DNA of 64,000 bases from a virus. A program made the translations under genes and the position numbers. The notes beneath the pieces are model-generated. The model was not told the DNA's origin, did not search any database, and was given only the letters and a program-made list of their open reading frames with translations. The stretch lies in IMG/VR virus record IMGVR_UViG_2687453534_000001; one strand, written 5' to 3'. Below, piece after piece: positions 12,373 to 57,871 of this stretch. The number at the start of each line of letters is the position of its first letter. Within the stretch, counting starts at the first letter, position 1.

Positions 12373-12438
12373 CCGGCTGCGCCGGAACGGGATACGTGCG
12401 CCGCGCGTATCAACTACCAGGAATGAAAGGATCAACCA

Positions 12439-12903
12439 ATGAGTGATGACCTATTCGACGGTCCGGGCTCGGCCGATGTCATCAACTGGGAGGACCTGGA
12501 GAAGCGATTGTTGCTTGTCCAGCCTCTTGAGCTGAAGGTTGGAGTGCCGACCAAGAATTACGGCCCGAAGGACGCCATCGAGGCCAACGTTCACGTGCTG
12601 GACGGCCCGGAGGCTGGCTCGGTGTACCGCAACGGGTACGTCTTCCCGCTGGTGCTGCAAGGTCAGATCAAGAGCAACATCGGAACTGGCCGTTTCAACC
12701 TTGGTCGCCTCGGCAAGGGTGTGCCCAAGCCGGGCCAGAAGCCGCCCTGGACACTGAGCGAGCCGACCGAGGATGAGAAGGCGCTGGCGCGAAAGTATCT
12801 CGCTAGCGACAAGTTCCAGCAGAACATGGCCGCACCTGTCGCCGCGGCATCCGCACCTGCGAATGACCCATGGTCGAACAACAGCGCGGAACCACCGTTC
12901 TGA
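12439..12903 (+). CDS. Hypothetical protein
   Basis: 154 aa. Preceded by the TCAACTACCAGG motif and an AAAGGA RBS. Confidence 0.6.
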   Translation: MSDDLFDGPGSADVINWEDLEKRLLLVQPLELKVGVPTKNYGPKDAIEANVHVLDGPEAGSVYRNGYVFPLVLQGQIKSNIGTGRFNLGRLGKGVPKPGQKPPWTLSEPTEDEKALARKYLASDKFQQNMAAPVAAASAPANDPWSNNSAEPPF

Positions 12904-12958
12904 TAAGCGGCCGAGGCTAGAAGCGGATCAACCCCCGCCCGATCTGCTCGTCTCGGCA

Positions 12959-13031
12959 GGCGCTCCGCTCCCGGTCCCTACCGCAACGATTGGTTTCAGG
13001 TCCCAATCGTTGGCGTCGGGGGCGGAGCGCC
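12959..13031 (+). other. Nested 73-nt stem-loop: 15-bp outer stem (one G-U) and 10-bp inner stem with a 9-nt loop; possible terminator or small structured RNA
   Basis: GGCGCTCCGCTCCCG ... CGGGGGCGGAGCGCC enclosing CAACGATTGG-tttcaggtc-CCAATCGTTG. No U-tract follows. It is not a tRNA (no cloverleaf). Confidence 0.4.
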
Positions 13032-13077
13032 ACCCCCAAACCTACTGACACAACACGACAATCACGCGGAGAGTGAA

Positions 13078-13287
13078 ATGAGCGCGCCAGCACCGGCCTG
13101 CAAGTGCGGTCACGACGATGACACGCACGTCGCCGGATTCGGTCAGTGCCTCGGTTGCACGCACTGCCCCGACATCCCGCACAACGCGAAATCCGGACAT
13201 GTCTACGAGCGCTGCCTATGCACCGAGTTCAAGCGCGACGATGAGAGCGCCGGCCAGACGGAGCGACTGATGGGAATGCAGGGGTGA
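13078..13287 (+). CDS. Small Cys/His-rich protein
   Basis: GGAGAG RBS. CKCGHDDDTH...CLGCTHCPDIPH...CLC. Confidence 0.5.
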   Translation: MSAPAPACKCGHDDDTHVAGFGQCLGCTHCPDIPHNAKSGHVYERCLCTEFKRDDESAGQTERLMGMQG

Positions 13288-13511
13288 GCGCCAAGACTAT
13301 CCGCGCGCGCGAGATCGCCAATGAGGTTCGCAACGACGCCGCGACTGATGTCAAGAACTTCGACGGCCGTGAGCTGACTGGGCGACTGGTCGGCGAAATC
13401 AATGGCAATACCAACGGTCTCATCGTCGGTCTGGCCAATTGTATAGAGACGTTGGCGACCGAGATCGAGCGGCTTGAGAATCGGATGCCCCCTCAACAGG
13501 GGTGGTGGTGA
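13284..13511 (+). CDS. Hypothetical protein
   Basis: GTG start in GTGA overlap. 75 aa. Confidence 0.5.
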   Translation: MSAKTIRAREIANEVRNDAATDVKNFDGRELTGRLVGEINGNTNGLIVGLANCIETLATEIERLENRMPPQQGWW

Positions 13512-14224
13512 TGTTCACCTATTCCACATGCGTCACGTGCAACACGATCATGATCGTTACAGACCACGACCAGCGTCAGCACCCGGAGTGTGCAGAGAAC
13601 GCGCCAGCACCAACCCTGACGCGTGTGGAACAGTTGACCGAAAAGCTGCGCGCGACGGTCCATGTGGGCGACCAGCATGAGCTGGAGGCGCGAATAGAGG
13701 CTGAGCTGAAAACAATCGATGAGCAGCCTCCAGCGCTGGGGCTTTCGGCGCTTTTCTACGCCACCGAGTACGGCTGGCCCGTGTTCCCACTGGAGGTGGG
13801 CGGGAAGCGGCCAGCGATCGCGAAAAAAGACGGCGGGAACGGTTTCAAGGATGCGACGACCGACCCTGAGCGCATCAAGAAGTTCTGGACCAAACACCCG
13901 CTATGCAACATCGGCATACCGACCGGCATCCACTTCGATGTGATCGATGTAGACGTGCCTGATGGTTGGTTGTCGTTGCGCGACATGCTTAATGAGGATC
14001 GCGTACCGGATGTTCATGGCCGCGTGGCCACCTCATCTGGTGGCGTGCACCTACTCATCGAACCCACTGGCGACGGCAACTCAGCACGCATCGCACCCGG
14101 TATCGACTACCGCGGCGCGGGTGGCTATGTCGTCGCGCCACCCTCACGAATAGACCCCCAGCACCGCTGGTCGTGGACGGTCAAGCCGTCACCGAAAGTA
14201 AAGGGAGAGAGAAACAATGAATGA
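13511..14224 (+). CDS. Bifunctional primase-polymerase (Prim-Pol) N-terminal-domain protein
   Basis: ALFYATEYGWPVFPL...GKRP...GFKDATTDPERI...NIGIPTG...VIDVDV...SGGVHLL...DYRGAGGYVVAPPS. GTG 13502 is an alternative start. Confidence 0.8.
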   Translation: MFTYSTCVTCNTIMIVTDHDQRQHPECAENAPAPTLTRVEQLTEKLRATVHVGDQHELEARIEAELKTIDEQPPALGLSALFYATEYGWPVFPLEVGGKRPAIAKKDGGNGFKDATTDPERIKKFWTKHPLCNIGIPTGIHFDVIDVDVPDGWLSLRDMLNEDRVPDVHGRVATSSGGVHLLIEPTGDGNSARIAPGIDYRGAGGYVVAPPSRIDPQHRWSWTVKPSPKVKGERNNE

Positions 14225-14528
14225 ATCAACTAACACCCATGAAGACCCCATCGTGAAGCATGTGGACTCTGAAGTCCTGCTAGACATCTGGCTCGATGGA
14301 TTCTCCAGTGGCATGGCGACTTTGATCCTGAACGCGGCCGAGGGGCACGATGACGCGCCACCTGAGATGGTGCAGGACGCCATGGTTCAGAGAATCGTCG
14401 GAGAAATCATGAGCGACCCGGCGGCGATGGAGACAGCGCGTCAGAAGATCTTTGCGCGTGTGCTCGGTGCTCCGCAGTTCGGGACCATCAAGCTCGACCT
14501 CGCGCGCATGGACCCCGATAAGTCATAG
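14217..14528 (+). CDS. Hypothetical protein
   Basis: 103 aa, acidic. Confidence 0.5.
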   Translation: MNESTNTHEDPIVKHVDSEVLLDIWLDGFSSGMATLILNAAEGHDDAPPEMVQDAMVQRIVGEIMSDPAAMETARQKIFARVLGAPQFGTIKLDLARMDPDKS

Positions 14529-14584
14529 CTCCATATCAACTACCAGGCAATGAATCAACAATCATAACAACGAAACTGGAGATA

Positions 14585-14716
14585 ATGATGAAGCACTGGA
14601 TCTACAAATTCCTGGGCATTCGAGTACGGGAGTACGACGAGACGCCCGCCTACACGGCGACCGTCAAGCGTCTCGGATTCAACCCGGAGACGCTGGTCTG
14701 GGTGGTGTCGGCATGA
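14585..14716 (+). CDS. Small protein (43 aa)
   Basis: GGAGA RBS. ATGATG start. Stop overlaps the next ATG (ATGA). Confidence 0.4.
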   Translation: MMKHWIYKFLGIRVREYDETPAYTATVKRLGFNPETLVWVVSA

Positions 14717-14961
14717 CCTACCTACCGGTCACCGAAGAGGACCAAGCCTGGCAGGAGACGGTCGGCGAGTCGCTGAACGCGATGATAAAAGAGCATCGCG
14801 ACATGGTGCGAGAGCATGGCACCCCGCCGCTGAAACTCCTGGCGGGCCTGCTGAACACGGCAGTCAAGACGTTCGGTACCGAGGACTTTCTGAGGATCGA
14901 AGATCTTATCGATCTCTTCGTCATCGCGCTTGATCGACTTGCGCAACAAGAGGTGTCGTGA
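14713..14961 (+). CDS. Small protein, member 1 of a tandem triplicated family (...DRLAQQ C-terminus)
   Basis: C-terminal IEDLIDLFVIALDRLAQQEVS resembles the next two ORFs. Confidence 0.55.
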   Translation: MTYLPVTEEDQAWQETVGESLNAMIKEHRDMVREHGTPPLKLLAGLLNTAVKTFGTEDFLRIEDLIDLFVIALDRLAQQEVS

Positions 14962-15227
14962 CCATGGACGGAATGGATGTGACACCGGTTCTCGCCGGGA
15001 TGATTGACACCTGGCCCCAAGAGGTTGGCGATGAACTCGATGAGATGATCGACGACCATGTTGAGCTGGTCGGACAGGTCACGCCTCATCGCGGCGTGGC
15101 ACTGGTCAACATCGCAGCGAAATTCGCGGCGATGCACGAGAAGGCCGAAGTTGGCGAGATCAACGAACTCGTCAGCCTTCTCGTGCTCGCAATCGACCGT
15201 CTGGCACAACAGCGGGAGGCGTCATGA
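14958..15227 (+). CDS. Small protein, member 2 of the tandem triplicated family
   Basis: INELVSLLVLAIDRLAQQREAS. GTGA overlap. Confidence 0.55.
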   Translation: MTMDGMDVTPVLAGMIDTWPQEVGDELDEMIDDHVELVGQVTPHRGVALVNIAAKFAAMHEKAEVGEINELVSLLVLAIDRLAQQREAS

Positions 15228-15469
15228 CGCACCCGTTCACGCCCGTACAAGAGGCCGAAGCGATCGCCTGGTACGCGAAAGTTGGTGCGGAGCTTGATGT
15301 GATGCTTGCTTCGCAGCCGGAAACCGGGCCACTTCCCGCGAAGTTCATCGCCGGGGTGATGGCGCTTGGGGCGTCGATGAGGCCAGAACTGAAAATGGAG
15401 AACCTCATCGACCTACTGGTCGTCGCGGTAGATCGTCTCGCGCAGCAGCGAAGTACGACTGATGGCTAA
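15224..15469 (+). CDS. Small protein, member 3 of the tandem triplicated family
   Basis: MENLIDLLVVAVDRLAQQRSTTDG. ATGA overlap. Confidence 0.55.
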   Translation: MTHPFTPVQEAEAIAWYAKVGAELDVMLASQPETGPLPAKFIAGVMALGASMRPELKMENLIDLLVVAVDRLAQQRSTTDG

Positions 15470-15716
15470 CCCGGAGCGCACTGTCTACAGCTTTCCCGGC
15501 ACTCCGTGGGTGTATCTCGTCGCGATATGTCACGACTGCGGCGAAAGGGTGGCGTTCGCTGGCCCCTCGGCGTCACGTGCGCGCGACGATTGGATGAGCA
15601 GTCACACCGACGAAAATCCAACACACCAAATCACGATAGCGGTTGAAGTGCATACAACTTCGGCGCGCGTCGAATGCACGATGGTGAGCTTTCAGGGAGT
15701 GGAGGCAAGGAGATGA
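15462..15716 (+). CDS. Hypothetical protein
   Basis: 84 aa. Confidence 0.5.
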   Translation: MANPERTVYSFPGTPWVYLVAICHDCGERVAFAGPSASRARDDWMSSHTDENPTHQITIAVEVHTTSARVECTMVSFQGVEARR

Positions 15717-17314: not shown

Positions 17315-17486
17315 TGTTCGTCCTGCGAATGTGGTGGCACTCGTTCCGCGGTCACCGCGTACTCGGCGAGACAGCCGGGCGCGGTGACCGCGCGGCGTTC
17401 GCGTGCTCATGTGGACGCGTATGGGAGCTGTAGTGCGCCCGTGTGGCGCACAATGAGAGGCAATCACAACACACCCGAGGAGTGCC

Positions 17487-17921: not shown

Positions 17922-17924
17922 TCC

Positions 17925-19571: not shown

Positions 19572-19589
19572 CGCTGCGGAGATGCTTCG

Positions 19590-22385: not shown

Positions 22386-22433
22386 TCTATACTGATCAGG
22401 CACCTTTCCGCAAAGGTGTCGTTGTTGTGATGG

Positions 22434-22475
22434 ACGAAGGCCCTCGGACCCCTCCGGGGGCCTTCGTTGTATTTC
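22434..22475 (+). terminator. Rho-independent terminator
   Basis: CGAAGGCCC ... GGGCCTTCG stem followed by TTGTATTTC. Confidence 0.5.
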
Positions 22476-22583
22476 GGGGCGCGCCATCAACTACCGGGCA
22501 ACACAATGTCCACTACACGTCGTATCATGAGCAACTGACAGACCCATCCCAAAATCAGGTCCAGGCCTTCCGTCGGAGGCGAT

Positions 22584-26140: not shown

Positions 26141-26602
26141 CTAGCCGATTGGGACGGCAGAGCATAGTTTCCACTGCGAGTCCTGTTTTTGCATTTCTAC
26201 AACGACAGGATCAGCGGGTACCTTTTCGAATTCACGGGTTGGTTGACCGATTGCGATGGCGCGGTCGCCGTTCGCAACGACCCTGGCTGGGACGAAGAAC
26301 AGCTTGCCGAGTGTTTTGGCTTGGTCGGTGCCTTGCTTGACTTCATCCATGCTTAGCCCGTTGTTTGCCGCGAATCCGCAGAGCATGGTCTGTAGCTTGG
26401 CTGTATCGCCCGCCGTGTAGGTTTCTAAAATCGAATTGATTGCAGTCTCAATCGTTTTAGTCTGAGTATCGTTTTGACCGGTTGCTGGTGCGGGACTTGT
26501 CTGGCCGTGGTCGGAGGCTAAATAGAAACCTCCGGCAGTGATCGCGGCTGCAAGCAGTGCTGTGGCAGCGTGGGTTCCGAGTGTTTTGGCTGACGGTTTC
26601 AC
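26141..26602 (-). CDS. Secreted/membrane-anchored protein (moron gene 3 of 3)
   Basis: N-terminal signal/TM MKPSAKTLGTHAATALLAAAITAGG. GTG start overlapping the upstream stop. Low local GC. Confidence 0.6.
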   Translation of the reverse strand: MKPSAKTLGTHAATALLAAAITAGGFYLASDHGQTSPAPATGQNDTQTKTIETAINSILETYTAGDTAKLQTMLCGFAANNGLSMDEVKQGTDQAKTLGKLFFVPARVVANGDRAIAIGQPTREFEKVPADPVVVEMQKQDSQWKLCSAVPIG

Positions 26603-26793
26603 TTGGTCCCTCTTCTGGGCGCGCGTAGACGAATAAATACGACTGGCCAGATAATGAATACAGCGACGGCCAGTATGGCGACCCCGCCAGCATACGAAAC
26701 CTGTGCCACTGCGGTGGCAGAAGCCAGAAGCGCAACACCAATGAGCACAATATAATACTTATTTAGCTCAGCTATCCGTTCGTGAATTTTCAT
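26599..26793 (-). CDS. Small two-TM membrane protein (moron gene 2 of 3)
   Basis: AAGGTG RBS. Low-GC codons. VLIGVALLASATAVA...ILAVAVFIIWPVVFI. Confidence 0.55.
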   Translation of the reverse strand: MKIHERIAELNKYYIVLIGVALLASATAVAQVSYAGGVAILAVAVFIIWPVVFIRLRAPRRGTK

Positions 26794-26805
26794 TTACGGT
26801 GCACC

Positions 26806-27798
26806 TTAAACTATCGCCGCAGTGAGCTTGTACCCATTGAGGACAAGTTGAATATGCTTTCCTGCGGGCATTTGGAAATCTGGCCAAATTACATCGAAGA
26901 TGATAGTGCATACGACAGCCGCGCCTCCCGCTGCGATGAACTGACCGACTGGGGTGGACTCTGCGGCCAGGAGCGCGCCGAGCCCGGCGCAGGACGTGAT
27001 AAATCCTGCTTTTGGCACGTCGGTGGCCATATTGGTGAGTTTCTTACTCTGCTCCTCAGTAAGATCAAGAGTGGCACGAGGTGCCCACTTGCACGCTCCT
27101 GTCACCGGGTCTTGAGGCCCCATGGCGCACCCTTTTTGAAGATCGACCGGCCGCTTGTCGTCCGGCCACTGATTTTGATCGGGTGTAGACGGTTGGGTTG
27201 GCTGCGGTGTCGGCGCCTGGGTAGGCGCTTGAGGTTGCTGCCCTTGCTGGGGTTGTTGCGGCGCTTGAAAATCCGGGTTGGGCTTTCCGGGGCCTTGGGT
27301 GTATCCGGGCGCTGTCGAGTAGTTGGGTGGTTGCGTACCGTGTGCCGGCTGGTCCCATCCCTGTTGCGGCTGCTGCTGACCGCCGGACTGGCCGCCTTGC
27401 TGGGGTGCTCCCTGTGCGCCGGTTTGGTAGATCGAGATGCCGTTGTCCTGATTCATCGGTGGCTGATTACCGCCCTGATATTGGGGCTGCTGTCCTGGCA
27501 TTTCAGGTGGCCTGAATTGGGAACCTCCGCCGTCTGTCATCCCACCTGTCGGCCCAGGCGGGCCGGACGGGTCGGCACCCACAGTCGCCATGGTGGAGAA
27601 ACCACTGCCTGGCGTGGTGTTGTCGCCCACCACCTGCACCGCGCCGATGACCACTGCTGCGGTAGCTATCACGGCCAACGACTTTCGAAGCGTCGGTGAT
27701 GTCGTTCGTGGCTCGGGCTGCGGCTTGATTGGGGATTGCAGCACTCGGCACCAGTGCGTCTCACGCGGATTGCTGTGATCTTGAATTTCGGGCTGCAT
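26806..27798 (-). CDS. Membrane protein with a long P/Q/G-rich low-complexity region and a Cys-containing C-terminal domain (moron gene 1 of 3)
   Basis: TM LAVIATAAVVIGAVQVV, then about 170 aa of PQG repeats, then a domain with four Cys. Confidence 0.6.
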   Translation of the reverse strand: MQPEIQDHSNPRETHWCRVLQSPIKPQPEPRTTSPTLRKSLAVIATAAVVIGAVQVVGDNTTPGSGFSTMATVGADPSGPPGPTGGMTDGGGSQFRPPEMPGQQPQYQGGNQPPMNQDNGISIYQTGAQGAPQQGGQSGGQQQPQQGWDQPAHGTQPPNYSTAPGYTQGPGKPNPDFQAPQQPQQGQQPQAPTQAPTPQPTQPSTPDQNQWPDDKRPVDLQKGCAMGPQDPVTGACKWAPRATLDLTEEQSKKLTNMATDVPKAGFITSCAGLGALLAAESTPVGQFIAAGGAAVVCTIIFDVIWPDFQMPAGKHIQLVLNGYKLTAAIV

Positions 27799-34700: not shown

Positions 34701-35254
34701 AGAATGCCTCGGCTTGGAAATCCGACCAGCACAGTGCCATCAAGTCGTACACCGGCAGCGGCTACAGCACAATGAACGCACACGCTCGCGAAGACAAAGT
34801 GCCGTCAGCCAAAACCAAGGCGCTCGATTCGGCGTTCTACGAGCACAATCCGTTTGAGGAGCACATCGTGCTCAGCCGCGGTACGCACGCTGTCGAGTTC
34901 AACGACGAGAACAGTCTGGGAATGAAGTTCAGTTTCGGCGCTGACATCGATGCGCTCAAGGTGCTGGAGGGTGAGACGTACATCTCCAAGTCCTTCCTGT
35001 CCACGTCGATCACCACCACGCCGGCATTCCACAACCCGGTTCGCGTGCTCTACAAGATGAAGCCAGGTCAGCGCGGCATCTTCGTCTCGGGTACACCAGA
35101 CGGAATGGATCAACTGACCTCCGTCGGAACCCACGAGCGCGAGGTTATCCTTCCCCGTAACCAGAAGATGAAGGTGCTGGAAGTGCGCAAGTCAACCGGG
35201 TCGTCACAGTTCAAGGTTGACGTGATCGTGGAGGTGGTGGATCAACCTGTCTAA
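31697..35254 (+). CDS. MuF-like head morphogenesis protein fused to Lys/Ala-rich repeats, an atypical kinase-like segment and a C-terminal R-S-E ADP-ribosyltransferase domain
   Basis: MuF region CEFCRVMATRGAVY...HDNCHC. Repeats about 32460-32780, 32860-32980 and 34020-34140. ART motifs Y-x-x-x-x-Y..N, SRG (Arg), FLSTS (STS) and HEREV (ExE) in the last 200 aa. Confidence 0.85.
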   Translation: MASLVEQAQALQGVLGDLTTLSTKDLVGLYKKLESDGATGADLLDAFKAVFPEVVQPYVEAASQVANQWYGELAPDEPYTPKAVDAIDAVPQDRMMNSLEWAFRAAGTAHPLTRLTGSAQRMVFDGARATILRNADAEKVKYSRLASPGACEFCRVMATRGAVYRSAHAAQAGHDNCHCVPAVARGKLKFQRPGYYQDWDAEYIDTVKQLEAEQIKPTLNAVLSKMRANELAASDSGPTLVAMSTKKSPAPADMAKWLDAEKQHQYDVSAWLSAEKSHTKKLAKAAAQAKYVAKKKATAEWLAAEQQHQADVSAWLVAEKDFTKKKAKAAAQAKYVANKKAAANTVAWLKAEQVYNEQQTLLEMAAEAAKASAKVAAMANAAANVDLKKASKALAAAKHAAKKKGDTTKYDALAKMTPAEYAASKGGVAAPKATTTITAKVTTPETAATAGIGTVSTATKPKAVVGALTDSPSALASTGQVLGTHGATVYTDSTSQKWLVKGPKNPNDQFLVTLDAASAELQAKSGLTTPAMYIMTVGGKRQSVQYMFPGSKSAFPSGVDLSTISEPDLLTIQKHHALDWLMGNHDSHAGQFIRAGSGEIVGIDKGQAFKYFTGDKLDWNYHPNVKHGTPEPIYNTLFRQYAEGKPGKLLNPSGGELADYIQGLQAIPDKEIRNLFRPYAEGAVKQGKLLVEANGSTPTNNVDAFLEAVVARKNGLANDLSAYYVKAVEKRLTKTKVKGEVTTVTPGMTITQGDFLPPTPIPTGPTPVLSGDALKKAGKALASAKYLAKKKGDTANFAQLSKMTPEQYWQMKNGNGPSQPVAAQSVTKPAKGTKSAKLLEWEKEFLKTSGSSGFFQPVKAYAVEKGIKLSEAIPEFDKEFGIAALTTDQLANLLGYYDVGVQTKWLGKYGDALGDDMAKNVLDKLKAQGNSKIKEPPKPVVIKQGTKYTPEHEQPAGELAKLGKTVIANSKAPVGSADNPHVFDASGKAVEWQQFGSLMSPQNASAWKSDQHSAIKSYTGSGYSTMNAHAREDKVPSAKTKALDSAFYEHNPFEEHIVLSRGTHAVEFNDENSLGMKFSFGADIDALKVLEGETYISKSFLSTSITTTPAFHNPVRVLYKMKPGQRGIFVSGTPDGMDQLTSVGTHEREVILPRNQKMKVLEVRKSTGSSQFKVDVIVEVVDQPV

Positions 35255-35698: not shown

Positions 35699-35881
35699 TT
35701 ACGGATGAATTCCTTGCTCCCAGCATAGATAGAACTGGGCAACGGTCTCCGCCCATTCGACGCGGCGTTTCACACGTTTCGCGTACCACTTCGCGAACTG
35801 CTCGCCCATTTCGGCATCAACGCACGCGTTGTACCGCACCCATTCCAGCGCCTCTCGGTAGTCCTCATCCGTGGTCTTCAT
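35699..35881 (-). CDS. Small hypothetical protein (60 aa)
   Basis: MKTTDEDYREALEW... The rest of the 245-aa track ORF is antisense to the scaffold gene. Confidence 0.4.
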   Translation of the reverse strand: MKTTDEDYREALEWVRYNACVDAEMGEQFAKWYAKRVKRRVEWAETVAQFYLCWEQGIHP

Positions 35882-35935
35882 GGTAGAGCACTCTACCACC
35901 GAATTGGTAGAGACGTATACCACCCTCACCGCACA
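35882..35935. promoter_or_regulatory. GGTAGAG palindrome/repeat (GGTAGAGcaCTCTACC, then a second GGTAGAG); candidate operator/promoter
   Basis: The same motif family recurs at 61161-61226. Confidence 0.4.
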
Positions 35936-36009: not shown

Positions 36010-36630
36010 ATGTCAGAAGAAGTCGGAACCCCCACGCCCAACTCGATGCCCGGAGCGGCCGAGACCGCGGCTGGTCAGCAGCCAGACGCGACGGGGGAGA
36101 GCATCGACGAGCTGGAAACTTCGTACGACGAACAGCTCGCGACGCTGGAGGGCGAACGCGACCAGTGGCGCGACCAGGCTCGTAAGAACGAGGCTCGCGC
36201 AAAGACAAACGCGGCCAAGGCGAAGGAGCACGATCAGCACTTCGCCGAGTACAAGGCCGCGTTCGATCGCGAACAGCAGAAGAAGGAAAGCGAGAAGACA
36301 CCTGATCAGCGCGTGCTAGATCAGGCAGCTCAGGATCGGGCTCGCGCCGAGAAGGCCGAGGCTGACAAGGCTGAGGCAGATGCTCGCCTTCTGAGATACC
36401 AACTGGCCGAAGGCATTCCACCGTTTGCGCTGCCACTGATCACGGCGACTTCTGAGGAAGAGATCACTGCCGAGGTCGAGGACCTAAAGGTCAAGCTCGC
36501 TGCCTACGTCACTGAGGTGACCAATAGCCAGTCCCGCAGGCCAGCTCCCGATCCGGCGTTTGGGCGCGGTGGTGCCGCTGGAGCAACTCCAGAAGAGCAA
36601 TTCGCCGCAGCGCTCAGAGGCGTTATTTAG
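36010..36630 (+). CDS. Scaffolding protein
   Basis: GGAGAG RBS. Acidic coiled-coil protein preceding the major capsid gene. Confidence 0.7.
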   Translation: MSEEVGTPTPNSMPGAAETAAGQQPDATGESIDELETSYDEQLATLEGERDQWRDQARKNEARAKTNAAKAKEHDQHFAEYKAAFDREQQKKESEKTPDQRVLDQAAQDRARAEKAEADKAEADARLLRYQLAEGIPPFALPLITATSEEEITAEVEDLKVKLAAYVTEVTNSQSRRPAPDPAFGRGGAAGATPEEQFAAALRGVI

Positions 36631-50712: not shown

Positions 50713-52460
50713 TGCCCCAGGGCTTCCCGGTCAAGAGTTCCGGTGGCCAATGGTACGGACGATTCAGCGCGTCAGTCCCCTCCATCCCGTCAGCAGAGGC
50801 GTTCGGCACCCCCGAGCTGGTGAAGCTTGTCTACAACCTGCGACCTACCAGCATCCCGTCCGCAGAAGCCTTCGGCTCGATGCTGGTCACATTCCCGCAG
50901 TTCACTTACCCCACCGGCATCCCGTCAGGGGAGGCGTTCGGTACAGCGCTTATCCGCAGTTCTTTCAACCCCGTATCCATTCCCTCGGAAGAGGCGTTCG
51001 GCGGGCCGACAATCTCAGTTGGCCCGGTCACCTTTACCCCTACAGGTATCCCATCGGCCGAGGCGTTCGGCACCGCGAAGTTCTCCCATGTCGTCATCGT
51101 GACGGCGGGCATCGCGTCAGCCGAAGTGGTGCCAGCCCCACGGGTAGGGCGCAACATCGGCGCGACCGGCATCGCCAGCGGCGAAGCATTCGGAACAGCG
51201 ACAGTCAACCGCGGCGCTGTCAGTGTCACTGCGTCGGGCATCCCATCGGCCGAGGCGTTCGGCGCGGCCACCTTCACGCAGCCGGCGACCGTCAATTACA
51301 GCACTCAAGGCGTGGGGAGTGAGACAACCTCGTCACCCACCCAGGTCACGATCAGTCCGAATGCTGGCGAGGACGTGCTGGCCTTCTTCTCGGTCGGCGA
51401 CGGCGGTGTCATGGGCGCTACCTACGGCGCGAGCAATCTGCCTATGACATGCGTTGGCCAAGCACTGTCATCGAGTAGCACGTTGATCGTGTGTTACCTG
51501 ATCCGCAATGTTGCTGCGGGTAGCGCAACCATCAATCTGACGAAGATCGGCAACAACTGGGGTCAAGCGGTTGCCGTGTCCTACGCCGGGGCGCAGGGCT
51601 TCCGAACGGCTAAACATGTTGTAGGCAACGGAACTTCATTCTCGCAGGCCGTAACCGTTCCGCTCAATGGCCGTACGGTACATGCATTCACGCCCGGTGA
51701 GAACAGCACCACCTTGTCAAGTCTCACAGGTGGTACTAGCCGCTATCTGGACAACGCCGGATTTCTTACGCAGTCGATAAGAGATACGGACGCGGATACC
51801 TCCTTCACAGGCACACTAAGCGCTAGCCGGCCGTGGGCAGCTTTGGCGGTGGCGCTGCGCGCAACCGCGGTTGGTGGCGTCACTCCGGGAGTTAGCGCGG
51901 GAACTGCCAGTGAAGGCAATGGCGACACGCGCACGTTTGATGTCTACGCAGCGACAGGCGATTACGTGTATGCCGTAGTCGCGCAGGACCGAACCGGCAA
52001 TCCCTCATCGGTCACGTGCGCGGGCACGGCGATGACCTTGATGGACACTCAGACTTTCACTACCGGCGTTGGTACTGGGTTCCTGAAGGTCTACCGCAGT
52101 GCATCCGCGATGGGTTCGGCTGGCGCTAAGACGGTTTCCATCACCGCCACAGGCGGCGGTTGGTGGCGTGGCTGCGGTATCGCGGTGTCGGGTGTCACCT
52201 CGCCGTCAGGGGTAGTCACCAAAACCTCGGGCTCATCGTCACAACCATCACAGGCCGTCACCTGTTCAGCCGGTGAGTTGATCCTTCAGTTCTTCGCGAC
52301 TGCTACGGAGCCGACCGGAACTGAGGGGGCCGCGACCCTGTGGCTCTCTCCGGGTGGTTCGTTCATGTTCCCCGTGATCAGCATTTCGGACGAGTCAACG
52401 ACTTTCAAGCTCTCGAACACCTCTATCAACTGGGGTGCGATCGCCGTGGTTCTCAGCTAG
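50712..52460 (+). CDS. Minor tail protein with about 9 tandem repeats of about 20 aa (core GIPSAEAFG)
   Basis: Repeats span about 50790-51290. Confidence 0.7.
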   Translation: MPQGFPVKSSGGQWYGRFSASVPSIPSAEAFGTPELVKLVYNLRPTSIPSAEAFGSMLVTFPQFTYPTGIPSGEAFGTALIRSSFNPVSIPSEEAFGGPTISVGPVTFTPTGIPSAEAFGTAKFSHVVIVTAGIASAEVVPAPRVGRNIGATGIASGEAFGTATVNRGAVSVTASGIPSAEAFGAATFTQPATVNYSTQGVGSETTSSPTQVTISPNAGEDVLAFFSVGDGGVMGATYGASNLPMTCVGQALSSSSTLIVCYLIRNVAAGSATINLTKIGNNWGQAVAVSYAGAQGFRTAKHVVGNGTSFSQAVTVPLNGRTVHAFTPGENSTTLSSLTGGTSRYLDNAGFLTQSIRDTDADTSFTGTLSASRPWAALAVALRATAVGGVTPGVSAGTASEGNGDTRTFDVYAATGDYVYAVVAQDRTGNPSSVTCAGTAMTLMDTQTFTTGVGTGFLKVYRSASAMGSAGAKTVSITATGGGWWRGCGIAVSGVTSPSGVVTKTSGSSSQPSQAVTCSAGELILQFFATATEPTGTEGAATLWLSPGGSFMFPVISISDESTTFKLSNTSINWGAIAVVLS

Positions 52461-53361: not shown

Positions 53362-53365
53362 TCCG

Positions 53366-54826
53366 ATGATGCGTTTCACGCGATCGAGGCCGATGATGAC
53401 ACGCGAAGAGATTGCACAAGAAGTTATTTCAGTAGCAGCGATGCTCGGCGTGGAGCCGAAGGGTGTCAAGATCGCGCTCGCTACGATCGCCGTGGAGGTT
53501 GGCACGACTAACCCCGAGTCTGGCGAGTACGGCTGGTGGTGCTTCGCCAACATCAAAGACCCGCAATGCCTGGCGCTGCCACACGACGCTGAGGGGGACG
53601 ACGGCTACTCATCGGGATACTTTCAGCAGCAGGCGCCCAAAGGTGCAAACTGGGGGTGGGGTGGACTGTTCGGCGATCCCGTTGGTGCATTCCGCCGCAT
53701 GGACATTCGCGAGTCCTCACGCATGTTTCTGGAGGCGCTGTTGCGCCTGTCGTATGACTACCGCGGTAATTCGCGCTCACCGGGCCGGATGGCCCAGGAC
53801 GTACAGCGATCGGCGTTCCCGGACCGCTACGACGAGCACTGGCGCGAAGCCAACGAAGTCTATGACCGCGCCGTCAGTGGCAATCCCGGCGAGCCGGAAC
53901 AGCCCTCGGGACCATGGACGGGTGACCCCGTATGGCTCGCCGACGTGCTGCGCGCCGAGGGCGTGGCCGTAGTCGAGTGCTCCGTAGGCGATGTGAGCTG
54001 GCTGGAGCGCGGCCACGGCGACATGGGCTCACTCTGGGGTGTCGTCAATCACCACACCGGAAGTAACGGCTCAACGTGGCGATCCATCTGGGATGGACGT
54101 CCAGACCTGCCAGGGCCACTGTCGCACATCCATTTACGCCGCGATGGCGTGGCTGAGCTTGTCGCTGTCGGTGTGTGTTGGCATGCGGGAACAGGCGCGT
54201 ACGGCGATCTGAGGCCCGGTACAGGTAATCAGCGGACCATAGGCATTGAATGCCAGAACGATGGCGGCGGCTCATCCGATCTGCCTTTACGCCATCGCAG
54301 CTCGTGGCCCGACTCCCAATATGAGGCGCTGGTCAAGATCAACGCCGCGATCGGTCGCCGCCTCGGCGTTGATGCAAGCCGAAGCATCTCGCACAAGGAA
54401 TACGACGACGGCGACCCGCAGACCGATGAGGGCAAGTGGGACCCCGGCCAGATCGACATGGACATCTTCCGTGCCGATGTTCAGCGTCAAATCGGCTCCA
54501 ACACAGGAGGTTTCCTCATGGCACTATCGGACGACGAACAGCGCGAGATCTTGGGCTACGTTCGGGAGCAGCGAGAGATCGTGGAATCACTCTCTCCGCT
54601 GCGCCATCTCGGTGAGAAGAAGGCGAACAACATTGCCGGGTACATCAGGGTGATGGACGCCAACAGCCACGTCGAGGCGATTGAGAAGCGCGCTGGGTAC
54701 GGAGACGCCAAAGCGATTGAGCTACTGGAGGAGATCGCTGGGGCAGACCCCGACGAGTACCCGGATCGTCAGCGAGACGCCGAGCTAGCCCGTCGCATCC
54801 TGGCTAAGGTCAGGGGCGAGAAGTGA
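53366..54826 (+). CDS. lysA: Lysin A: N-terminal peptidase-like domain, central amidase_2/PGRP amidase, C-terminal wall-binding region
   Basis: Amidase_2 region GVVNHHTGSNGST...HIHLRRDGVAEL...CWHAGTG. GTG 53318 is an alternative start. Confidence 0.85.
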   Translation: MMRFTRSRPMMTREEIAQEVISVAAMLGVEPKGVKIALATIAVEVGTTNPESGEYGWWCFANIKDPQCLALPHDAEGDDGYSSGYFQQQAPKGANWGWGGLFGDPVGAFRRMDIRESSRMFLEALLRLSYDYRGNSRSPGRMAQDVQRSAFPDRYDEHWREANEVYDRAVSGNPGEPEQPSGPWTGDPVWLADVLRAEGVAVVECSVGDVSWLERGHGDMGSLWGVVNHHTGSNGSTWRSIWDGRPDLPGPLSHIHLRRDGVAELVAVGVCWHAGTGAYGDLRPGTGNQRTIGIECQNDGGGSSDLPLRHRSSWPDSQYEALVKINAAIGRRLGVDASRSISHKEYDDGDPQTDEGKWDPGQIDMDIFRADVQRQIGSNTGGFLMALSDDEQREILGYVREQREIVESLSPLRHLGEKKANNIAGYIRVMDANSHVEAIEKRAGYGDAKAIELLEEIAGADPDEYPDRQRDAELARRILAKVRGEK

Positions 54827-55899
54827 TCGTCAACGGTCAGTTTGTCGGCTACGGCCGAGGTGACAACGGTCCCGAGGTTGAGCGAGTCCGGTACTACCTC
54901 ACCGAGAAGTTTCGATGGGCGCGCGACATGGGTATGACCCACGGCGACTACTTCGATGAACTCACTGAGCGCGTGTTGATTCAGTTCCAGAAGAACGTCG
55001 GGCTACCGGCAGTTGGCATCGCGAACTACGCGACCAGGCTGCGTTTGTACGGACTTAAACCGCTTCCATGGCAGCGCATTACCGTATACACGTTCGCCGG
55101 AACATGGTCCGCCGCGGACTGGGGTTTCCAGGCTGACGCGGCACGCGGGTTGGACCCCGGATTCTTCACCTGGGTGCCGATCGACTACCCAGCCAGTTTC
55201 GGCCCCATCCCCGGTGGTCCAGTCACCGGCATTACGTCGCTGTCGTACCAGGAATCGGTAGAGGTCGCTGTAAGGGCTGGCATCAAGCGGATCGCCGCGA
55301 CGCCGGGCAAGTTCATGCTCGGTGGCTACTCGCAGGGTGCCGAGGCGGCATCGCGTCTATTGCGAGAGATCATTCACGGCGGCTCCCTGTCGCACCGCGC
55401 GAGTGACTTCATCGGCGGCTACACCTTTGGTAATCCGTGTCGCGAGGAGAACCACACCTGGCCCGGTGACACACTCGCGGGCCGCGGCATCTCGCCGAAT
55501 CGCATCGAGGGCACGCCGCTCACCTGGCACGATTATGCACACGCTGGCGATATGTATACAGCCGTGCCGAATGGTGATGCTGGCGACGACATTACAGCCG
55601 TCTATGACGTGCTGACGCGTCTCCAGATTCACGACCCGTTTCAGATGGCCATAGATATGGTCGCGGCATTGACTGGCAAGGGTGGTCTGGCTGAGCAGAT
55701 CGCCGAGCTGTTGGGTAACCCGCTGAACCTGATCGATGCCGCGCGCGCCGCTGGTATCGCGATTCGGTTCGCGGCATCCGGTGCTCGCGATCACGGCACC
55801 TACGGGATTGATGACGTAATGGACGGCTCAGGGCGTAGCTCTGTCCACCATGCCATCGATTCGATGAACGCATACGGTCGCAAAGTGCTTGCGGTGTAG
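54823..55899 (+). CDS. lysB: Lysin B, mycolylarabinogalactan esterase (cutinase-like)
   Basis: N-terminal PG-binding-like GDNGPEVERVRYYL. GYSQGA serine-hydrolase motif. GTGA coupling. Confidence 0.85.
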   Translation: MIVNGQFVGYGRGDNGPEVERVRYYLTEKFRWARDMGMTHGDYFDELTERVLIQFQKNVGLPAVGIANYATRLRLYGLKPLPWQRITVYTFAGTWSAADWGFQADAARGLDPGFFTWVPIDYPASFGPIPGGPVTGITSLSYQESVEVAVRAGIKRIAATPGKFMLGGYSQGAEAASRLLREIIHGGSLSHRASDFIGGYTFGNPCREENHTWPGDTLAGRGISPNRIEGTPLTWHDYAHAGDMYTAVPNGDAGDDITAVYDVLTRLQIHDPFQMAIDMVAALTGKGGLAEQIAELLGNPLNLIDAARAAGIAIRFAASGARDHGTYGIDDVMDGSGRSSVHHAIDSMNAYGRKVLAV

Positions 55900-55920
55900 C
55901 GAATTACGAGAGGATTAATC

Positions 55921-56133
55921 ATGCCGAATCTGAGTGAAAAGCTGACATCGACACAGCGAATTGCGTTGTACGGCGTTACCTTCGTGGTACTCACGGGACT
56001 CGCCGCTGCCAATGTCATTGACAAAGAAGCGGTACCGCCGTTGCTGGACATGGCCGGAACCATGCTGGGTCTCGGAGTGATCGGCGTGGCCGGTCGAGTG
56101 CTGCACGAGCAGCGGCGAGACGGGTTGTTCTGA
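55921..56133 (+). CDS. Holin (two-TM)
   Basis: GAGAGGA RBS. 70 aa with 2 TM, directly after LysB. Confidence 0.7.
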   Translation: MPNLSEKLTSTQRIALYGVTFVVLTGLAAANVIDKEAVPPLLDMAGTMLGLGVIGVAGRVLHEQRRDGLF

Positions 56134-56134
56134 C

Positions 56135-56461
56135 GTGAACTGGAGCGGCATCGGAGCCGACAACCTGATGGACTTGGTCGCCTACGGCATCATCGGCATT
56201 GCCTACGTGCTGTCGCAACGACAGACGCGCAATCAGTTGGAAGCCATTCGCGGTCAGGTCCAAAACGGTCATAAGACGCCGATGCGCACCGACCTTGACG
56301 AGGTGAAAGACGACGTTCGCGGTATACGAAAGGACTTTGGCGACTTTCGCTCTGAGGTCCGCACCGGGTTCCGCAATCTGCGCGAAGACCTCAATGCCGA
56401 ACGCGACGAACGTATTGCGTCGGACCAGGAACTAGCGAAAAGGCACCGCCATGATCGGTAA
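56135..56461 (+). CDS. Membrane protein with one TM and a coiled-coil tail (holin-like/lysis accessory)
   Basis: GTG start. Confidence 0.5.
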   Translation: MNWSGIGADNLMDLVAYGIIGIAYVLSQRQTRNQLEAIRGQVQNGHKTPMRTDLDEVKDDVRGIRKDFGDFRSEVRTGFRNLREDLNAERDERIASDQELAKRHRHDR

Positions 56462-56771
56462 CGTCGCGATCGTCGATCGTATCAACCTCATTCAGGGCCA
56501 GGACCTCGCGCACCGATGGGACGTGCCAGTAGGTGATAACCTGCCCGCTGGCACCACCGTCACGCTGTACATGTACTCGCACAATTTCAGTGAGACGCTT
56601 GGCGTCTGGCCATCGATCGACGTTGACGCCTCCGGTGCGAGCTTCTTCATCGAGGCCGAGGACCTAGAGCCGATCCCAGCCGGGGCACGGTTTCGCGTCT
56701 ATCTCGTCTACCCAGACGCCCCCAAGCCTCGGCTGGTCTGGATTCTTGGCACCGTCTCAAGGCAGGGGTAG
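56451..56771 (+). CDS. Hypothetical protein
   Basis: 106 aa. Confidence 0.5.
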   Translation: MIGNVAIVDRINLIQGQDLAHRWDVPVGDNLPAGTTVTLYMYSHNFSETLGVWPSIDVDASGASFFIEAEDLEPIPAGARFRVYLVYPDAPKPRLVWILGTVSRQG

Positions 56772-56774
56772 CGG

Positions 56775-57095
56775 ATGATTGACGAATCTGTTCTGAATGC
56801 TATGTGCACCACAATGGTTGGCTACTTCGATGAGGTCTCGCTACACAACAGCGAGCCCGGTGCCGGTGGTGCCAATGAGATGCCCGGCATCGCACGCAAG
56901 ACACCGACATGGGCGCCTGCGGACAACGGCGAGTCAACGGCGGTAGTCACATTCGCGGCTTACGTCGGTGTATCGACACACATCGGCTTCTGGCATGCTG
57001 GTGCATTCGTAGGGTCCCGGCCGTTCGTTGCGAACTTCGAGGCCGCAGCCGATCTGGTTGTGGCGCTCAATCCATATGTGCAGGAACGCACATGA
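56775..57095 (+). CDS. Hypothetical protein
   Basis: RBS GGCAGGGG. 106 aa. Confidence 0.5.
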   Translation: MIDESVLNAMCTTMVGYFDEVSLHNSEPGAGGANEMPGIARKTPTWAPADNGESTAVVTFAAYVGVSTHIGFWHAGAFVGSRPFVANFEAAADLVVALNPYVQERT

Positions 57096-57787
57096 CCCTG
57101 GTATTCCCACCTAAGCCGTTCACGCGGATGGTTCACGCGCGGCCCGGTGTGCTGTCCCAGCCCATCGAGGGTGTCGGCAAGGGTGCGCGCGTCGGCGTCG
57201 TTGCTGATGTGCGCGTGACGGGCAAGATGCACGTCACCGACACCTTCACCAACCTGGACAAGTTCGCCATGGTTTACGGCGGCCTGCCGTTCTTCGGTGG
57301 TGATCCCTATATCGACGCCGGAAAGCTAGCTGGCCGCGGCCTTGTGCGCCACAAGGTGCAGGCAATGAGCGACAACGGCCGCGCCAACGCGGTCATCGGC
57401 TCACTGGCTGGCGGCAAGACCCGGCTGGTGATCTGTGGTGACGCGTTGTTCAACACCTACTACGGCATCGAGGTTGAGACCGGCATCATCAATAACAAGC
57501 TGCACATCATCAAGGGCCGCGGTAACGCGGCGACGGTGACCAAGCACGCGACGGTCAGCGTTGCGTGGGCCAACAGCGATTCGGTGTCGGTGTGGTATGA
57601 CGAGCCCAACCACACCATCCGCGCCTACCGGAACAACACGCAGGTAACGAGTCTGGCGGTGCGCGCTAATGAGATCAACCATGGACCGGGGTTCAGAAAC
57701 CACGGCGTCGCGGTCGGAGTGGATCTGTTCCTAGGTGTGATCAACGTCGGCGCGCTGTTCACGTCATACGAATATCTCGACGTGTAG
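57092..57787 (+). CDS. Hypothetical protein (231 aa)
   Basis: ATGA-coupled start. The long track ORF has a non-coding N-terminal extension. Confidence 0.55.
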   Translation: MTLVFPPKPFTRMVHARPGVLSQPIEGVGKGARVGVVADVRVTGKMHVTDTFTNLDKFAMVYGGLPFFGGDPYIDAGKLAGRGLVRHKVQAMSDNGRANAVIGSLAGGKTRLVICGDALFNTYYGIEVETGIINNKLHIIKGRGNAATVTKHATVSVAWANSDSVSVWYDEPNHTIRAYRNNTQVTSLAVRANEINHGPGFRNHGVAVGVDLFLGVINVGALFTSYEYLDV

Positions 57788-57871
57788 CGCTACCAAAACT
57801 GTAGGACATGAACTGTCAACTACCGGGCTACATTCAGCTCTGAGACCCCGTTATCCGAGCCTGGAGTAGAG

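Follow-up and report, generated by a model that had tools for sequence, protein, structure and literature searches.

The window analyzed here, a single stretch of 64,000 nucleotides taken at its full length, corresponds to the prophage McProf (cluster MabR) of Mycobacterium chelonae (BK061309.1; window coordinate = record coordinate + 942). Four of its intergenic gaps hold copies of a short word, referred to below as S1 to S4, and one of these follows a pair of terminator-like hairpins:

12409..12421, + strand: S1, ATCAACTACCAGG, in the gene 19/gene 20 gap, ending 17 nt 5' of the gene 20 ATG
14535..14547, + strand: S2, ATCAACTACCAGG, in the gene 24/gene 25 gap, beginning 6 nt past the gene 24 stop
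22399..22475, + strand: two tandem intrinsic-terminator-like hairpins at the end of the early operon, just 5' of S3
22486..22498, + strand: S3, ATCAACTACCGGG, in the gene 42 (HTH protein)/gene 43 (glycosyltransferase) gap, directly 3' of the two hairpins
57815..57827, + strand: S4, GTCAACTACCGGG, in the gene 82/gene 83 (sliding clamp) gap

The initial annotation had described a 12-mer recurring four times on the + strand, always between genes, and both an exhaustive pattern search and the deposited annotation bore this out. We observed exact copies of TCAACTACCRGG at window positions 12410-12421, 14536-14547, 22487-22498, and 57816-57827, all on the + strand, with no further exact copy on either strand of the window and none inside genes. 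The expected count is 0 (no match in 100 dinucleotide-preserving shuffles). Extended by the first base, the copies are the 13-mers ATCAACTACCAGG (twice), ATCAACTACCGGG, and GTCAACTACCGGG, letter for letter as first given, and together they make up an asymmetric 13-bp word, RTCAACTACCRGG; none of the copies showed a left half-site or dyad in its flanks. The gaps concerned (g19/g20, g24/g25, g42/g43, and g82/g83 as annotated in the deposited record) measure 59 to 210 nt. Intergenic DNA makes up 5.3% of the McProf genome, and finding 4/4 copies in gaps by chance has a probability of ∼8e-6. From motif end to annotated start codon, the distances for S1 to S4 are 17, 40, 97, and 44 nt; two gene starts first placed at 14585 and 22584 are annotated at 14588 and 22596, a slight offset. 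All four copies are sense to the rightward operons, an agreement that by itself is weak with n=4 (1 in 8).

Degenerate searches led from these gaps to the genetic switch. The pattern RTCAACTACYRG matched five times in McProf versus 0.02 expected, the matches being S1 to S4 and an inverted copy inside P_R. AACTACYRG matched six times in the phage versus 0.5 expected, always intergenically, at S1 to S4 and at switch operators A and D, and the looser TCAAYYACYRG also gave six matches in McProf. The relevant features of the switch region are as follows:

3561..3569, - strand: operator A, AACTACTAG, in the repressor gene leader, in the same direction as the repressor gene
3601..3612, no strand assigned: ATTACCGGTAAT, a perfect 12-bp palindrome, S-like, in the repressor-cro gap
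3721..3733, - strand: TGTCAACCACTGA, over the P_R -35 hexamer, a direct repeat of operator D, 21 bp off on the same strand
3728..3757, + strand: P_R, predicted early lytic promoter of cro (TTGACA, 18-nt spacer, GATGAT)
3742..3754, - strand: operator D, ATCAACTACTAGC, over the P_R spacer and first -10 bases, the fifth RTCAACTACYRG member, inverted relative to S1 to S4

P_R matches the consensus at 10/12 positions and is the sole sigma-70-type match within the switch region. The sequence that the 12-mer had been said to share with the repressor-region CAACTAGTAG is real (site at 3614), and a better match is the core of operator D, ATCAACTACTAG on the - strand at 3743-3754, which fits RTCAACTACYRG at 12/12 positions and is the closest match genome-wide outside the S sites. 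Operator D is kept in the relatives FSAT, FSIL, and FVLQ, all of which repeat the McProf layout of RTCAACTACYRG copies with an inverted one in P_R; in FSQJ it reads ATCAATTACTAGC. The neighboring site at 3721..3733 reads TGTCAACCACCGA in FVLQ and TGTCAACCACTGG in FSQJ, a full TCAACYACYRG match, and its extended -35, CAGTGGTTGAC, is also found at the rightward promoters of phage DS6A. At the position of the palindrome, which overlaps TAATTT, a - strand TANNNT and candidate -10 of the repressor promoter, FVLQ carries AACTACCAGTAAT, 12/13 identical to S1 (12/13 was reached by 1/2000 shuffled sites). Switch regions of McProf, L021, and L022 all contain YTACYRG-type cores, and natural variants pass between the S and switch forms, with CCAG, CCGG, CTGG, and CTAG all fitting YRG after CTAC. 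In McProf, however, a C and a 3' GG are constant in S1 to S4, where the five switch sites show T and an end that varies, so two separate specificities are possible. By sequence, the best explanation is that the S 13-mer belongs to the family of genetic-switch operators, with the putative consensus RTCAAC-YAC-YRG.

S-type sites were found at the matching gaps in the MabR relatives FSAT, FSIL, FVLQ, and FSQJ, the exception being S3, which is present in the first three and replaced in FSQJ. S1 is unchanged in FSAT, FSIL, and FVLQ and reads ATGAACTACTGGT in FSQJ. At S2 (ATCAACTACTGGA in FVLQ, ATCAACCACTAGA in FSQJ), the DNA 5' of the motif is unalignable among relatives and the motif is kept; S4 is kept in all five MabR phages, with the variant ATCAATTACCGGG in FVLQ. 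L022 has ATCAATTACCAGAC 5' of its gp20-like gene, and in L021 S1 has degenerated. Individual sites thus appear dispensable, given the loss of S3 in FSQJ and of an intact S1 in L021. The most distant comparison is with DS6A, a phage of M. tuberculosis (the MabR prophages come from M. abscessus/chelonae), whose non-coding DNA cannot be aligned with that of McProf. DS6A nevertheless carries GTCAACTACCAAGC 5' of its gp20 ortholog (proteins 61% identical), 71 nt from the start, and the S-like GTCAACCACGAAAC 5' of its clamp gene; three of its intergenic copies are on the sense strand. Moreover, the DS6A sequence GTCAACTACCAAGCGC, 5' of the gp20 ortholog, matches at 15/16 positions, inverted, the -35 region of a candidate rightward early promoter in that phage's own switch, and a matrix test of the DS6A S1 against its own switch gave 12/13, reached by 1/2000 shuffles. 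The S sites are therefore conserved far past their flanks and are sequence kin of P_R sites in two distant phage lineages.

This conservation makes it very improbable that the copies are short remnants of gene-module recombination with no present function. Some local observations would suit such junctions: McProf gene 88 has an ACTACC copy on either side, compared with one site in FVLQ and FSQJ; at S2, the homology between relatives starts at the motif; and two FSQJ sites are alike at 24/25 nt. However, the motif is kept 5' of orthologous genes in DS6A and L022 despite fully diverged non-coding flanks, its copies are all intergenic and in one orientation, and no mosaic boundary was seen at S1, S3, or S4.

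The placement upstream of gene blocks had also suggested a promoter element. Promoters of the SigA type have a TANNNT -10 hexamer at a fixed position, with or without a -35 hexamer 16 to 19 nt 5' of it. A consensus scan around S1 to S4 gave zero sigma-70-type matches, and TANNNT is missing from the + strand of two gaps, g19/g20 and g24/g25. Since two of its gaps lack such a hexamer, the S motif was rejected as a SigA-type promoter, and the spacing to -10-like hexamers is inconsistent where these do occur: TATCAT (22523-22528; TACACT in FSQJ) lies 23 nt 3' of S3, which places S3 at about -36 to -49 relative to it, and TACATT (57829-57834; TANNNT in all five MabR phages) lies 1 base 3' of S4. 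Of the two roles first proposed, stoperator-like or promoter, the promoter thus found no support, and the stoperator-like role is favored in silico by a motif that is asymmetric, 13 bp long, intergenic, and co-oriented, with an inverted 12/12 copy in P_R and, independently, a similar arrangement in DS6A.

It is unlikely, though worth weighing, that the S sites form parts of phage-specific internal promoters, activator bound or used for antiterminator loading (e.g., by the HTH_17 protein gp13 or gp42), that turn on lytic gene blocks. Under such a scheme, the site would be expected to stay with the downstream gene as the upstream gene changes, as seen for gp20 orthologs (MabR, L022, and DS6A) and for the clamp (MabR and DS6A). 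S3 comes after two terminators, the first being GGCACCTTTCCGCAAAGGTGTC with a T-rich tail and the second, as read from sequence, GACGAAGGCCC...GGGCCTTCGT followed by TGTATTT and kept in 5/5 MabR phages, so that a restart or antitermination signal would be needed close by; gp42, an HTH_17 protein, is encoded immediately 5' of S3. The hexamers near S3 and S4 also remain TANNNT in relatives while their inner bases vary. Against this stand the missing hexamers in two gaps, the empty consensus scan, the unequal spacing at S3 and S4, and FSQJ site 3, which retains TANNNT with the motif gone. Inverted copies in McProf P_R and in the DS6A switch promoter would likewise be unexplained.

We also considered roles in the transcript. 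The word resembles the start-associated sequences (SAS) of cluster K phages in being short, conserved, and sense oriented 5' of some genes. Cluster K SAS include the ribosome-binding site and lie a few bases from the start codon; in Milly, a K2 phage with a gp3 homolog, GGGATAGGAGCCC lies directly before start codons. The McProf word, in contrast, is devoid of Shine-Dalgarno content, each gene having a separate one, and because its distance to the start varies from 17 to about 100 nt (71 nt in DS6A), it was rejected as a start-associated sequence. It could still work in RNA or in the transcribing complex, as a processing site, a translational-regulator site, or a nut/ops-like signal. The strict sense orientation within leaders of polycistronic operons and the observed substitutions, mostly transitions, would fit, and at S4 the motif is predicted from the sequence to pair with the gene 83 Shine-Dalgarno region. 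We regard this as highly unlikely, however: neither S1 nor S3 repeats that pairing, an RNA role leaves unexplained why inverted copies lie in promoter DNA (P_R and the DS6A switch promoter), and Rfam covariance models at the gathering score gave no match over the whole window. An apparent 9-nt complementarity of the motif to the 16S rRNA 790 region is presumably chance. The window contains no tRNA genes.

A third binding scheme involves palindromes of the class GGTAGA-N4-TCTACC, located at the promoters of genes 56, 87, and 88/89, where they overlap -10 hexamers of genes that are on in the lysogen (PMC8191103; lysogen RNA-seq is described there at the gene level only). S1 to S4 might be orphan half-sites of the regulator that binds them, for which the HTH protein gp89 is the probable candidate. 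The core of the motif, ACTACC(R), is identical to the right palindrome half (GGTAGAATGAACTACCAAGA is the third palindrome, and its FVLQ equivalent ends ACTACCGGCC), and the two change in parallel in FSQJ, with palindromes becoming AGTAGA-N4-TCTACT and two S-type sites likewise going from CTACC to CTACT. The scheme is nonetheless distinctly improbable: a left half-site at the required spacing was read in 0/4 S sites, the core of S1 to S4 has a conserved ATCAA on its left and GG on its right where palindromes vary, and operator D in P_R, which outside the S sites is the genome's best match, is no palindrome.

The palindromes find their counterpart elsewhere. The repressor of Streptomyces phage phiC31 binds conserved inverted repeats (CIRs) spread through operons. 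Cluster O mycobacteriophages have 17-bp inverted repeats that are operator-like sites (PMC4351075). McProf resembles both in that operator-like sites are spread over operons, beyond one switch region. Those repeats, however, are palindromic, so that orientation is meaningless, whereas the S word is asymmetric and uniformly oriented; the McProf palindromes are the closer analogue.

For the S word itself, the closest comparison was with stoperators (PMC9934374, PMC9283540, PMC5559632, and PMC5721134) of cluster A mycobacteriophages (L5, Bxb1, and TipsytheTRex), Gordonia A15 and Rhodococcus CA phages, and M. abscessus MabJ prophages. Stoperators are asymmetric 13- to 14-bp sites, mostly in short intergenic gaps and in one orientation, with the true operator at the early promoter inverted (PMC9934374 and PMC9283540). 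Similarly, the McProf word is a 13-bp asymmetric sequence in short gaps, in one orientation to transcription; a reversed, related copy lies across the predicted early lytic promoter; and, read along transcription, the word includes the reverse complement of the -35-like TTGA(C/T). Its geometry thus matches, at the level of sequence, the features that define stoperators, copy number excepted: McProf has 4 to 5 strong copies versus 14 to 36 in known systems. Other differences are that the invariant TCAA stands at the 5' end (RTCAAC-TACCRGG) rather than at the 3' end as in stoperators (GGTGGxTGTCAAG), that the promoter copies deviate from the dispersed ones at 1 to 3 positions, and that the likely repressor has no detected kinship to L5 gp71 or the repressor of TipsytheTRex, which are monomeric, combine an HTH with a Stoperator domain, and block elongation at their sites depending on site orientation. 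Because the repressor is unrelated and copies are few, membership of the S sites in the cluster A stoperator family was rejected.

The most likely binder of S1 to S4 is predicted to be the immunity repressor gp3, an Xre-type HTH protein, with Cro (gp4) as the alternative. The recognition-helix segment KAQRWNQ of gp3 is invariant in 17 homologs of 41 to 100% identity. Searches of gp3 against PDB with phmmer gave no match even at E up to 10, and none was found in Pfam. Foldseek of the gp3 model against PDB returned Xre-family HTH domains only, at E above 0.001; with a model this weak (pLDDT 57.6), the structural side of the repressor-homology test is soft. Sequence and model searches found no Stoperator domain in gp3, only a generic Xre/434-Cro-like HTH fold, and, as modeled, gp3 resembles ordinary HTH proteins of the Xre/434-Cro type, which as a rule form dimers on symmetric sites.

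Since the S 13-mer closely resembles the site inside P_R, the S sites are probably extra docking sites for the phage repressor. Our preferred reading, to which we assign a probability of roughly 45%, is that S1 to S4 are candidate sites of repressor binding, dispersed along the phage, at which lytic transcription would be silenced or blocked; we infer both the identity of the binder and the block of transcription by binding. In this model, the P_R copies (operator D at the spacer and -10, and a second copy at the -35) would be the true operators, and S1 to S4 would be the P_R operator word reversed, set in short gaps along the rightward lytic operons. Protein bound there would prevent lytic gene expression in the prophage, stopping escaping or read-through RNA polymerase at S1 and S2 and occluding weak internal promoters at S3 and S4, near which the -10-like hexamers lie. 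The low copy number weighs against dispersed repressor sites, as does the absence of a dyad in S1 to S4 given the symmetric sites usual for Xre/434-Cro-type binders. S3 and S4 could instead be ordinary promoter-proximal operators or activator sites, and the CTACC core is also a half-site of the palindromic class, which may have its own binder.

Taking the switch and the relatives together, we tentatively propose, as a conjecture more likely to fail than to hold, a second, independently evolved stoperator-type system, in which an ordinary gp3-family Xre-type repressor with the invariant KAQRWNQ helix would use one asymmetric 13-bp word as P_R operator and, inverted, as a transcription block at a few intergenic positions, with the sites 5' of the gp20 ortholog and the sliding clamp predating the MabR/DS6A split. 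If true, these phages would have a silencing layout hitherto described only in an unrelated phage group, that of the cluster A type.

The 64,000-nt sequence belongs to McProf, the cluster MabR prophage carried by M. chelonae ATCC 35752. Over 3 kb of the window, identity to the McProf record BK061309.1 is 100%, and window coordinates equal record coordinates plus 942. The initial annotation had described an oriented 12-mer in intergenic gaps at the starts of gene blocks. A pattern search of the window with TCAACTACCRGG returned exactly four matches (12410, 14536, 22487, and 57816), all on the + strand, compared with none in 100 dinucleotide-preserving shuffles. Because every exact match also falls in a gap of the deposited annotation, that observation proved correct; the gene starts named with it held overall, with a slightly different choice of start codon at two genes. 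Intergenic DNA makes up 5.3% of McProf. When up to two mismatches were allowed, 19 matches were found versus 6.4 expected. The 13-bp sites and two related sites near the repressor gene are as follows:

12409, + strand: site 1 (S1), dispersed copy in the g19/g20 gap
14535, + strand: site 2 (S2), dispersed copy in the g24/g25 gap
22486, + strand: site 3 (S3), dispersed copy in the g42/g43 gap
57815, + strand: site 4 (S4), dispersed copy in the g82/g83 gap
3561-3569, - strand: operator A
3742-3754, - strand: operator D, a similar copy in P_R, the predicted early lytic promoter for cro

We compared these sites with four further deposited MabR prophages, all complete records (FSAT, FSIL, FVLQ, and FSQJ). 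The word was present at orthologous gaps in FSAT, FSIL, and FVLQ, with variants in FVLQ at site 2 (ATCAACTACTGGAC) and site 4 (ATCAATTACCGGGC). In FSQJ, the most diverged of the set, three sites persist in altered form (ATGAACTACTGGTA, ATCAACCACTAGAC, and GTCAACTACCGGCC) and site 3 is lost. At site 2, the motif was kept although the DNA upstream of it is unalignable among MabR phages. A search for more relatives through the clamp gene gave nothing beyond close relatives in IMG/VR and no matches in species-representative genomes, and identity within the clamp protein family drops straight from 73% to 41%. In the MabR genome paper, "motif" refers to protein motifs only, and neither promoters nor operators nor intergenic regions come up (PMC9434293). 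RNA-seq of the lysogen, at the gene level only, detected expression of gp3, gp1-2, gp48-50, gp56, and right-arm genes (PMC8191103).

Several features were observed around the sites. One ATG abuts the end of S1 and another follows S2 by 2 nt. They open mini-ORFs of 7 and 5 codons (12422-12445 and 14549-14566), the first of which ends in ATGAGTGA, overlapping the start of gene 20; these may reflect coincidence or translational coupling. A 38-codon ORF over S3 is annotated in FSIL and FVLQ and is missing from the McProf annotation. The ∼100-nt leader downstream of S3 is conserved, FSQJ included, and a small hairpin (GCCTTCCgtcGGAGGC, 22550-22580) could form between the gene 43 Shine-Dalgarno sequence GGAGG and a CCTTCC upstream of it. 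Intergenic leaders of McProf are mostly CA-rich. The 62-residue gp19 (12184-12372; L001 11242-11430) is labeled "Cas4 family exonuclease" in McProf and hypothetical protein in all four relatives, so the label looks like an annotation slip.

The gap between the genes for the putative Xre-type immunity repressor gp3 and Cro (gp4), at 3536-3823, contains CTAGTAG five times and one sigma-70-type promoter, P_R, with TTGACA (3728-3733), an 18-nt spacer, and GATGAT (3752-3757). The copy in its spacer reads ATCAACTACTAGC on the - strand. Natural variants of the dispersed sites continue after CTAC with CCAG, CCGG, CTGG, or CTAG, all compatible with Y-R-G, and we therefore adopted the unified pattern RTCAACTACYRG. 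This pattern matched five times in the window versus 0.02 expected, at S1 to S4 on the + strand and at the P_R copy on the - strand, and its layout was the same in FSAT, FSIL, and FVLQ. The shorter AACTACYRG gave six matches versus 0.5 expected, corresponding to S1 to S4 and operators A and D, every one of them intergenic. A second similar word, TGTCAACCACTGA, lies over the P_R -35 on the same strand as operator D and 21 bp away; its FSQJ counterpart, TGTCAACCACTGG, is a full match. At 3601-3612 the same gap contains ATTACCGGTAAT, a perfect palindrome; FVLQ has AACTACCAGTAAT at this position. A further S-like site lies at the 3' end of cro (4069-4082), and a Mycobacterium contig, L022, has a perfect GTCAACTACCAGGC where its cro-like gene ends. 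Membership of this cro-tail site is ambiguous, because a semi-conserved peptide, S-(I/T/N)-(T/V)-R-Q, is encoded across it and synonymous drift is seen there in FVLQ. In FSQJ, the cro-tail site (L009 3202-3226) and site 2 (15548-15572) have 24 of 25 nt in common (GATATCAACCA[G/C]TAGACCTATAAA), an identity far beyond the core word, which suggests either that one site was recently copied to the other or that the functional unit in this phage is longer.

The proposal that the word is a conserved promoter element was not supported, and a sigma-70/SigA promoter was rejected. A consensus scan found no sigma-70/SigA promoter near any of S1 to S4, and a relaxed TANNNT scan of the + strand found none in the g19/g20 and g24/g25 gaps. 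S3 stands after two tandem terminator-like hairpins and 23 nt upstream of TATCAT, and S4 lies 1 nt upstream of TACATT. These hexamers remain TANNNT in relatives, and the geometry of motif and hexamer is unequal at the two sites. With sequences read by eye, an extracytoplasmic function (ECF)-type -35 (xxAAC) was rejected for want of a consistent -10 at 16-17 nt downstream, as was an antisense promoter from the opposite-strand TTGAY, since none of the sites has a -10 spaced 16-18 nt from it. A role for S1 to S4 as promoter, activator, or antiterminator sites is unlikely. The motif is not a start-associated sequence (SAS), because it lies anywhere from 17 to 97 nt from the start codon. Scans of the window yielded no Rfam matches and no intact tRNA (ARAGORN). 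Base pairing between the motif and 16S rRNA or ribosome-binding sites, which differs from site to site, was rejected. A signal acting at the level of RNA or the elongation complex is very unlikely.

Homologs of gp3 occur in phages otherwise unrelated to McProf. In DS6A, whose repressor is 47% identical to gp3, the early region is MabR-like and the clamp gene again follows the lysis genes. Here, GTCAACTACCAAGC starts 2 nt past the gene 71 stop and ends 71 nt before gene 72, the product of which is 61% identical to McProf gp20; GTCAACCACGAAAC lies upstream of the clamp gene (product 35% identical to gp83), and GTCAACCACGAGGC stands in front of a methyltransferase gene. All three are intergenic and on the sense strand. 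Intergenic - strand copies in DS6A fall on extended -35-like sequences (CAAAYAGTGGTTGA[C]) at rightward promoter-like elements. In the DS6A switch, GCGCTTGCTAG precedes such an element (TTGACG, 17-nt spacer, CATATT), and its reverse complement, GTCAACTAGCAAGCGC, is identical to the gene 72 site at 15 of 16 positions. We also scored site 1 of each lineage against the switch region of every lineage. Against their own switches, DS6A and FVLQ each scored 12/13, equaled by 1 of 2,000 shuffled sites in each case, and FSIL scored 11/13 (20 of 2,000). In L022, a metagenome-assembled contig with a repressor 48% identical to gp3, ATCAATTACCAGAC is kept upstream of the gp20-like gene. Site 1 has degenerated in L021; an apparent covariation between this site and the switch repeats was dropped, because its sole basis is AAATGC, a word about as frequent as chance predicts (7 seen, ∼6 expected). 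The cluster K2 phage Milly encodes a gp3 homolog and contains SAS and inverted TGTTGAC repeats but no S-type sites, and Gordonia phage Kenna is uninformative, since its recognition helix and operator palindrome are both unlike those of McProf. The motif is real, non-random, and conserved over deep divergence, and by sequence comparison it is tied to putative early-promoter operators in two lineages. That the copies are relics of recombination is highly improbable.

Other similarities link McProf and DS6A. An extended -35, CAGTGGTTGAC(A) (3717-3733), is common to P_R and several putative DS6A rightward promoters (CAAAYAGTGGTTGAC; record 34918-34935, 51322-51339, and the g85/g86 gap), and the TCAACCAC form of the dispersed word is its reverse complement. 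The 45-bp att core at both McProf ends (window 943-987; record 1-45 and 68179-68223) and the DS6A g50/g51 gap (record 36377-36408; L020 6377-6408) have an exact 32-nt word in common, which suggests that both phages integrate at one site or at closely related sites.

A second class of repeat, GGTAGA-N4-TCTACC, occurs three times in the divergent g87/g88 gap (61161-61226) and once or twice in the g56/g57 gap (35882-35921), with a degenerate copy before the HTH gene 89 (62049-62064); with up to two mismatches, seven matches in all were found versus 0.87 expected. These palindromes share bases with good -10 hexamers: TAGATT in the leftward direction, TAGAAT in the rightward one, and TAGAGT at gene 56. 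The promoters serve genes expressed in the lysogen. In DS6A, GTAGA-N4-TCTAC occurs eight times, always intergenic, and four copies run directly into ATG. A separate regulator, gp89 for example, probably uses the palindromes as operators. Since the palindrome half-site and the dispersed word both contain CTACC, S1 to S4 could be half-sites for that regulator; however, they lack a second half-site, and positions conserved in S1 to S4 vary among the palindromes, making this quite unlikely.

Within 35839-35897 on the - strand, an in-frame ATG lies right after a palindrome and 8 nt past TAGAGT. Starting gene 56 there would add 14 codons (MKTTDEDYREALEW...) and give a leaderless transcript, resembling the DS6A genes that begin immediately behind a palindrome of this kind. 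Gene 56 (35699-35839) and the leftward genes 48-50 (26141-27798) are McProf-specific insertions, absent in the four relatives, and belong to the reported lysogen-expressed set (PMC8191103). In McProf (region 61211-62064), FSAT, and FSIL, gene 88 (DUF2786/DUF7168) lies between two ACTACC-containing sites; in its place, FVLQ and FSQJ carry just one palindrome, immediately 5' of the HTH gene (FVLQ record 59309-59472, L008 25309-25472). This arrangement looks like insertion or recombination at a repeated site.

The most likely binder of the dispersed word is gp3, with Cro as the alternative. The KAQRWNQ segment of the gp3 recognition helix is invariant across 17 homologs of 41 to 100% identity, which fits the YTACYRG-type cores common to the switch regions; the FSQJ-type version of the helix reads SAQRWWQ. 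Sequence comparison of gp3 found no relative in the PDB and no Pfam domain; the predicted structure (pLDDT 57.6, too weak to assign the fold firmly) resembles Xre/434-Cro-type HTH domains only. Across the five phages, gp3, Cro, gp13, gp42, and gp89 all diverge in FSQJ, so this comparison does not discriminate among binders.

Stoperators, asymmetric sites of 13 to 14 bp, all point the same way with respect to transcription and mostly occupy short intergenic gaps. One copy or more serves as a genuine operator overlying the early lytic promoter, and in MabJ prophages the remaining copies are oriented opposite to that operator (PMC9934374, PMC9283540). All described systems have cluster-A-type repressors and words ending TGTCAA(G) (PMC5559632, PMC5721134). 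The stoperator-like reading of the initial annotation stands for the site-level features, which the McProf word shares, but not for copy number or repressor family. Because these two differ, the McProf element lies outside that family despite its resemblance in look and arrangement. Our best-supported but tentative reading, with a probability of about 0.45, is that S1 to S4 are a small set of dispersed putative repressor-binding sites that would silence or block lytic transcription, every functional step of which we infer.

Genome-wide silencing by dispersed, oriented repressor sites has hitherto been linked to a single repressor family, that of cluster A phages and related phages. If our reading is true, a similar layout would be built on an unrelated, ordinary HTH repressor, making the strategy convergent, and would raise the question of how an Xre-type protein reads an asymmetric site and halts RNA polymerase in one direction. 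The dispersed sites make a simple prediction that existing lysogen RNA-seq, or ChIP, could test. Clinical M. abscessus strains carry MabR prophages, which increase drug resistance in M. chelonae, and DS6A is in use as a tuberculosis reporter and therapy phage. Once known, the immunity sites of MabR phages and DS6A would aid prediction of superinfection immunity and engineering of lytic derivatives.
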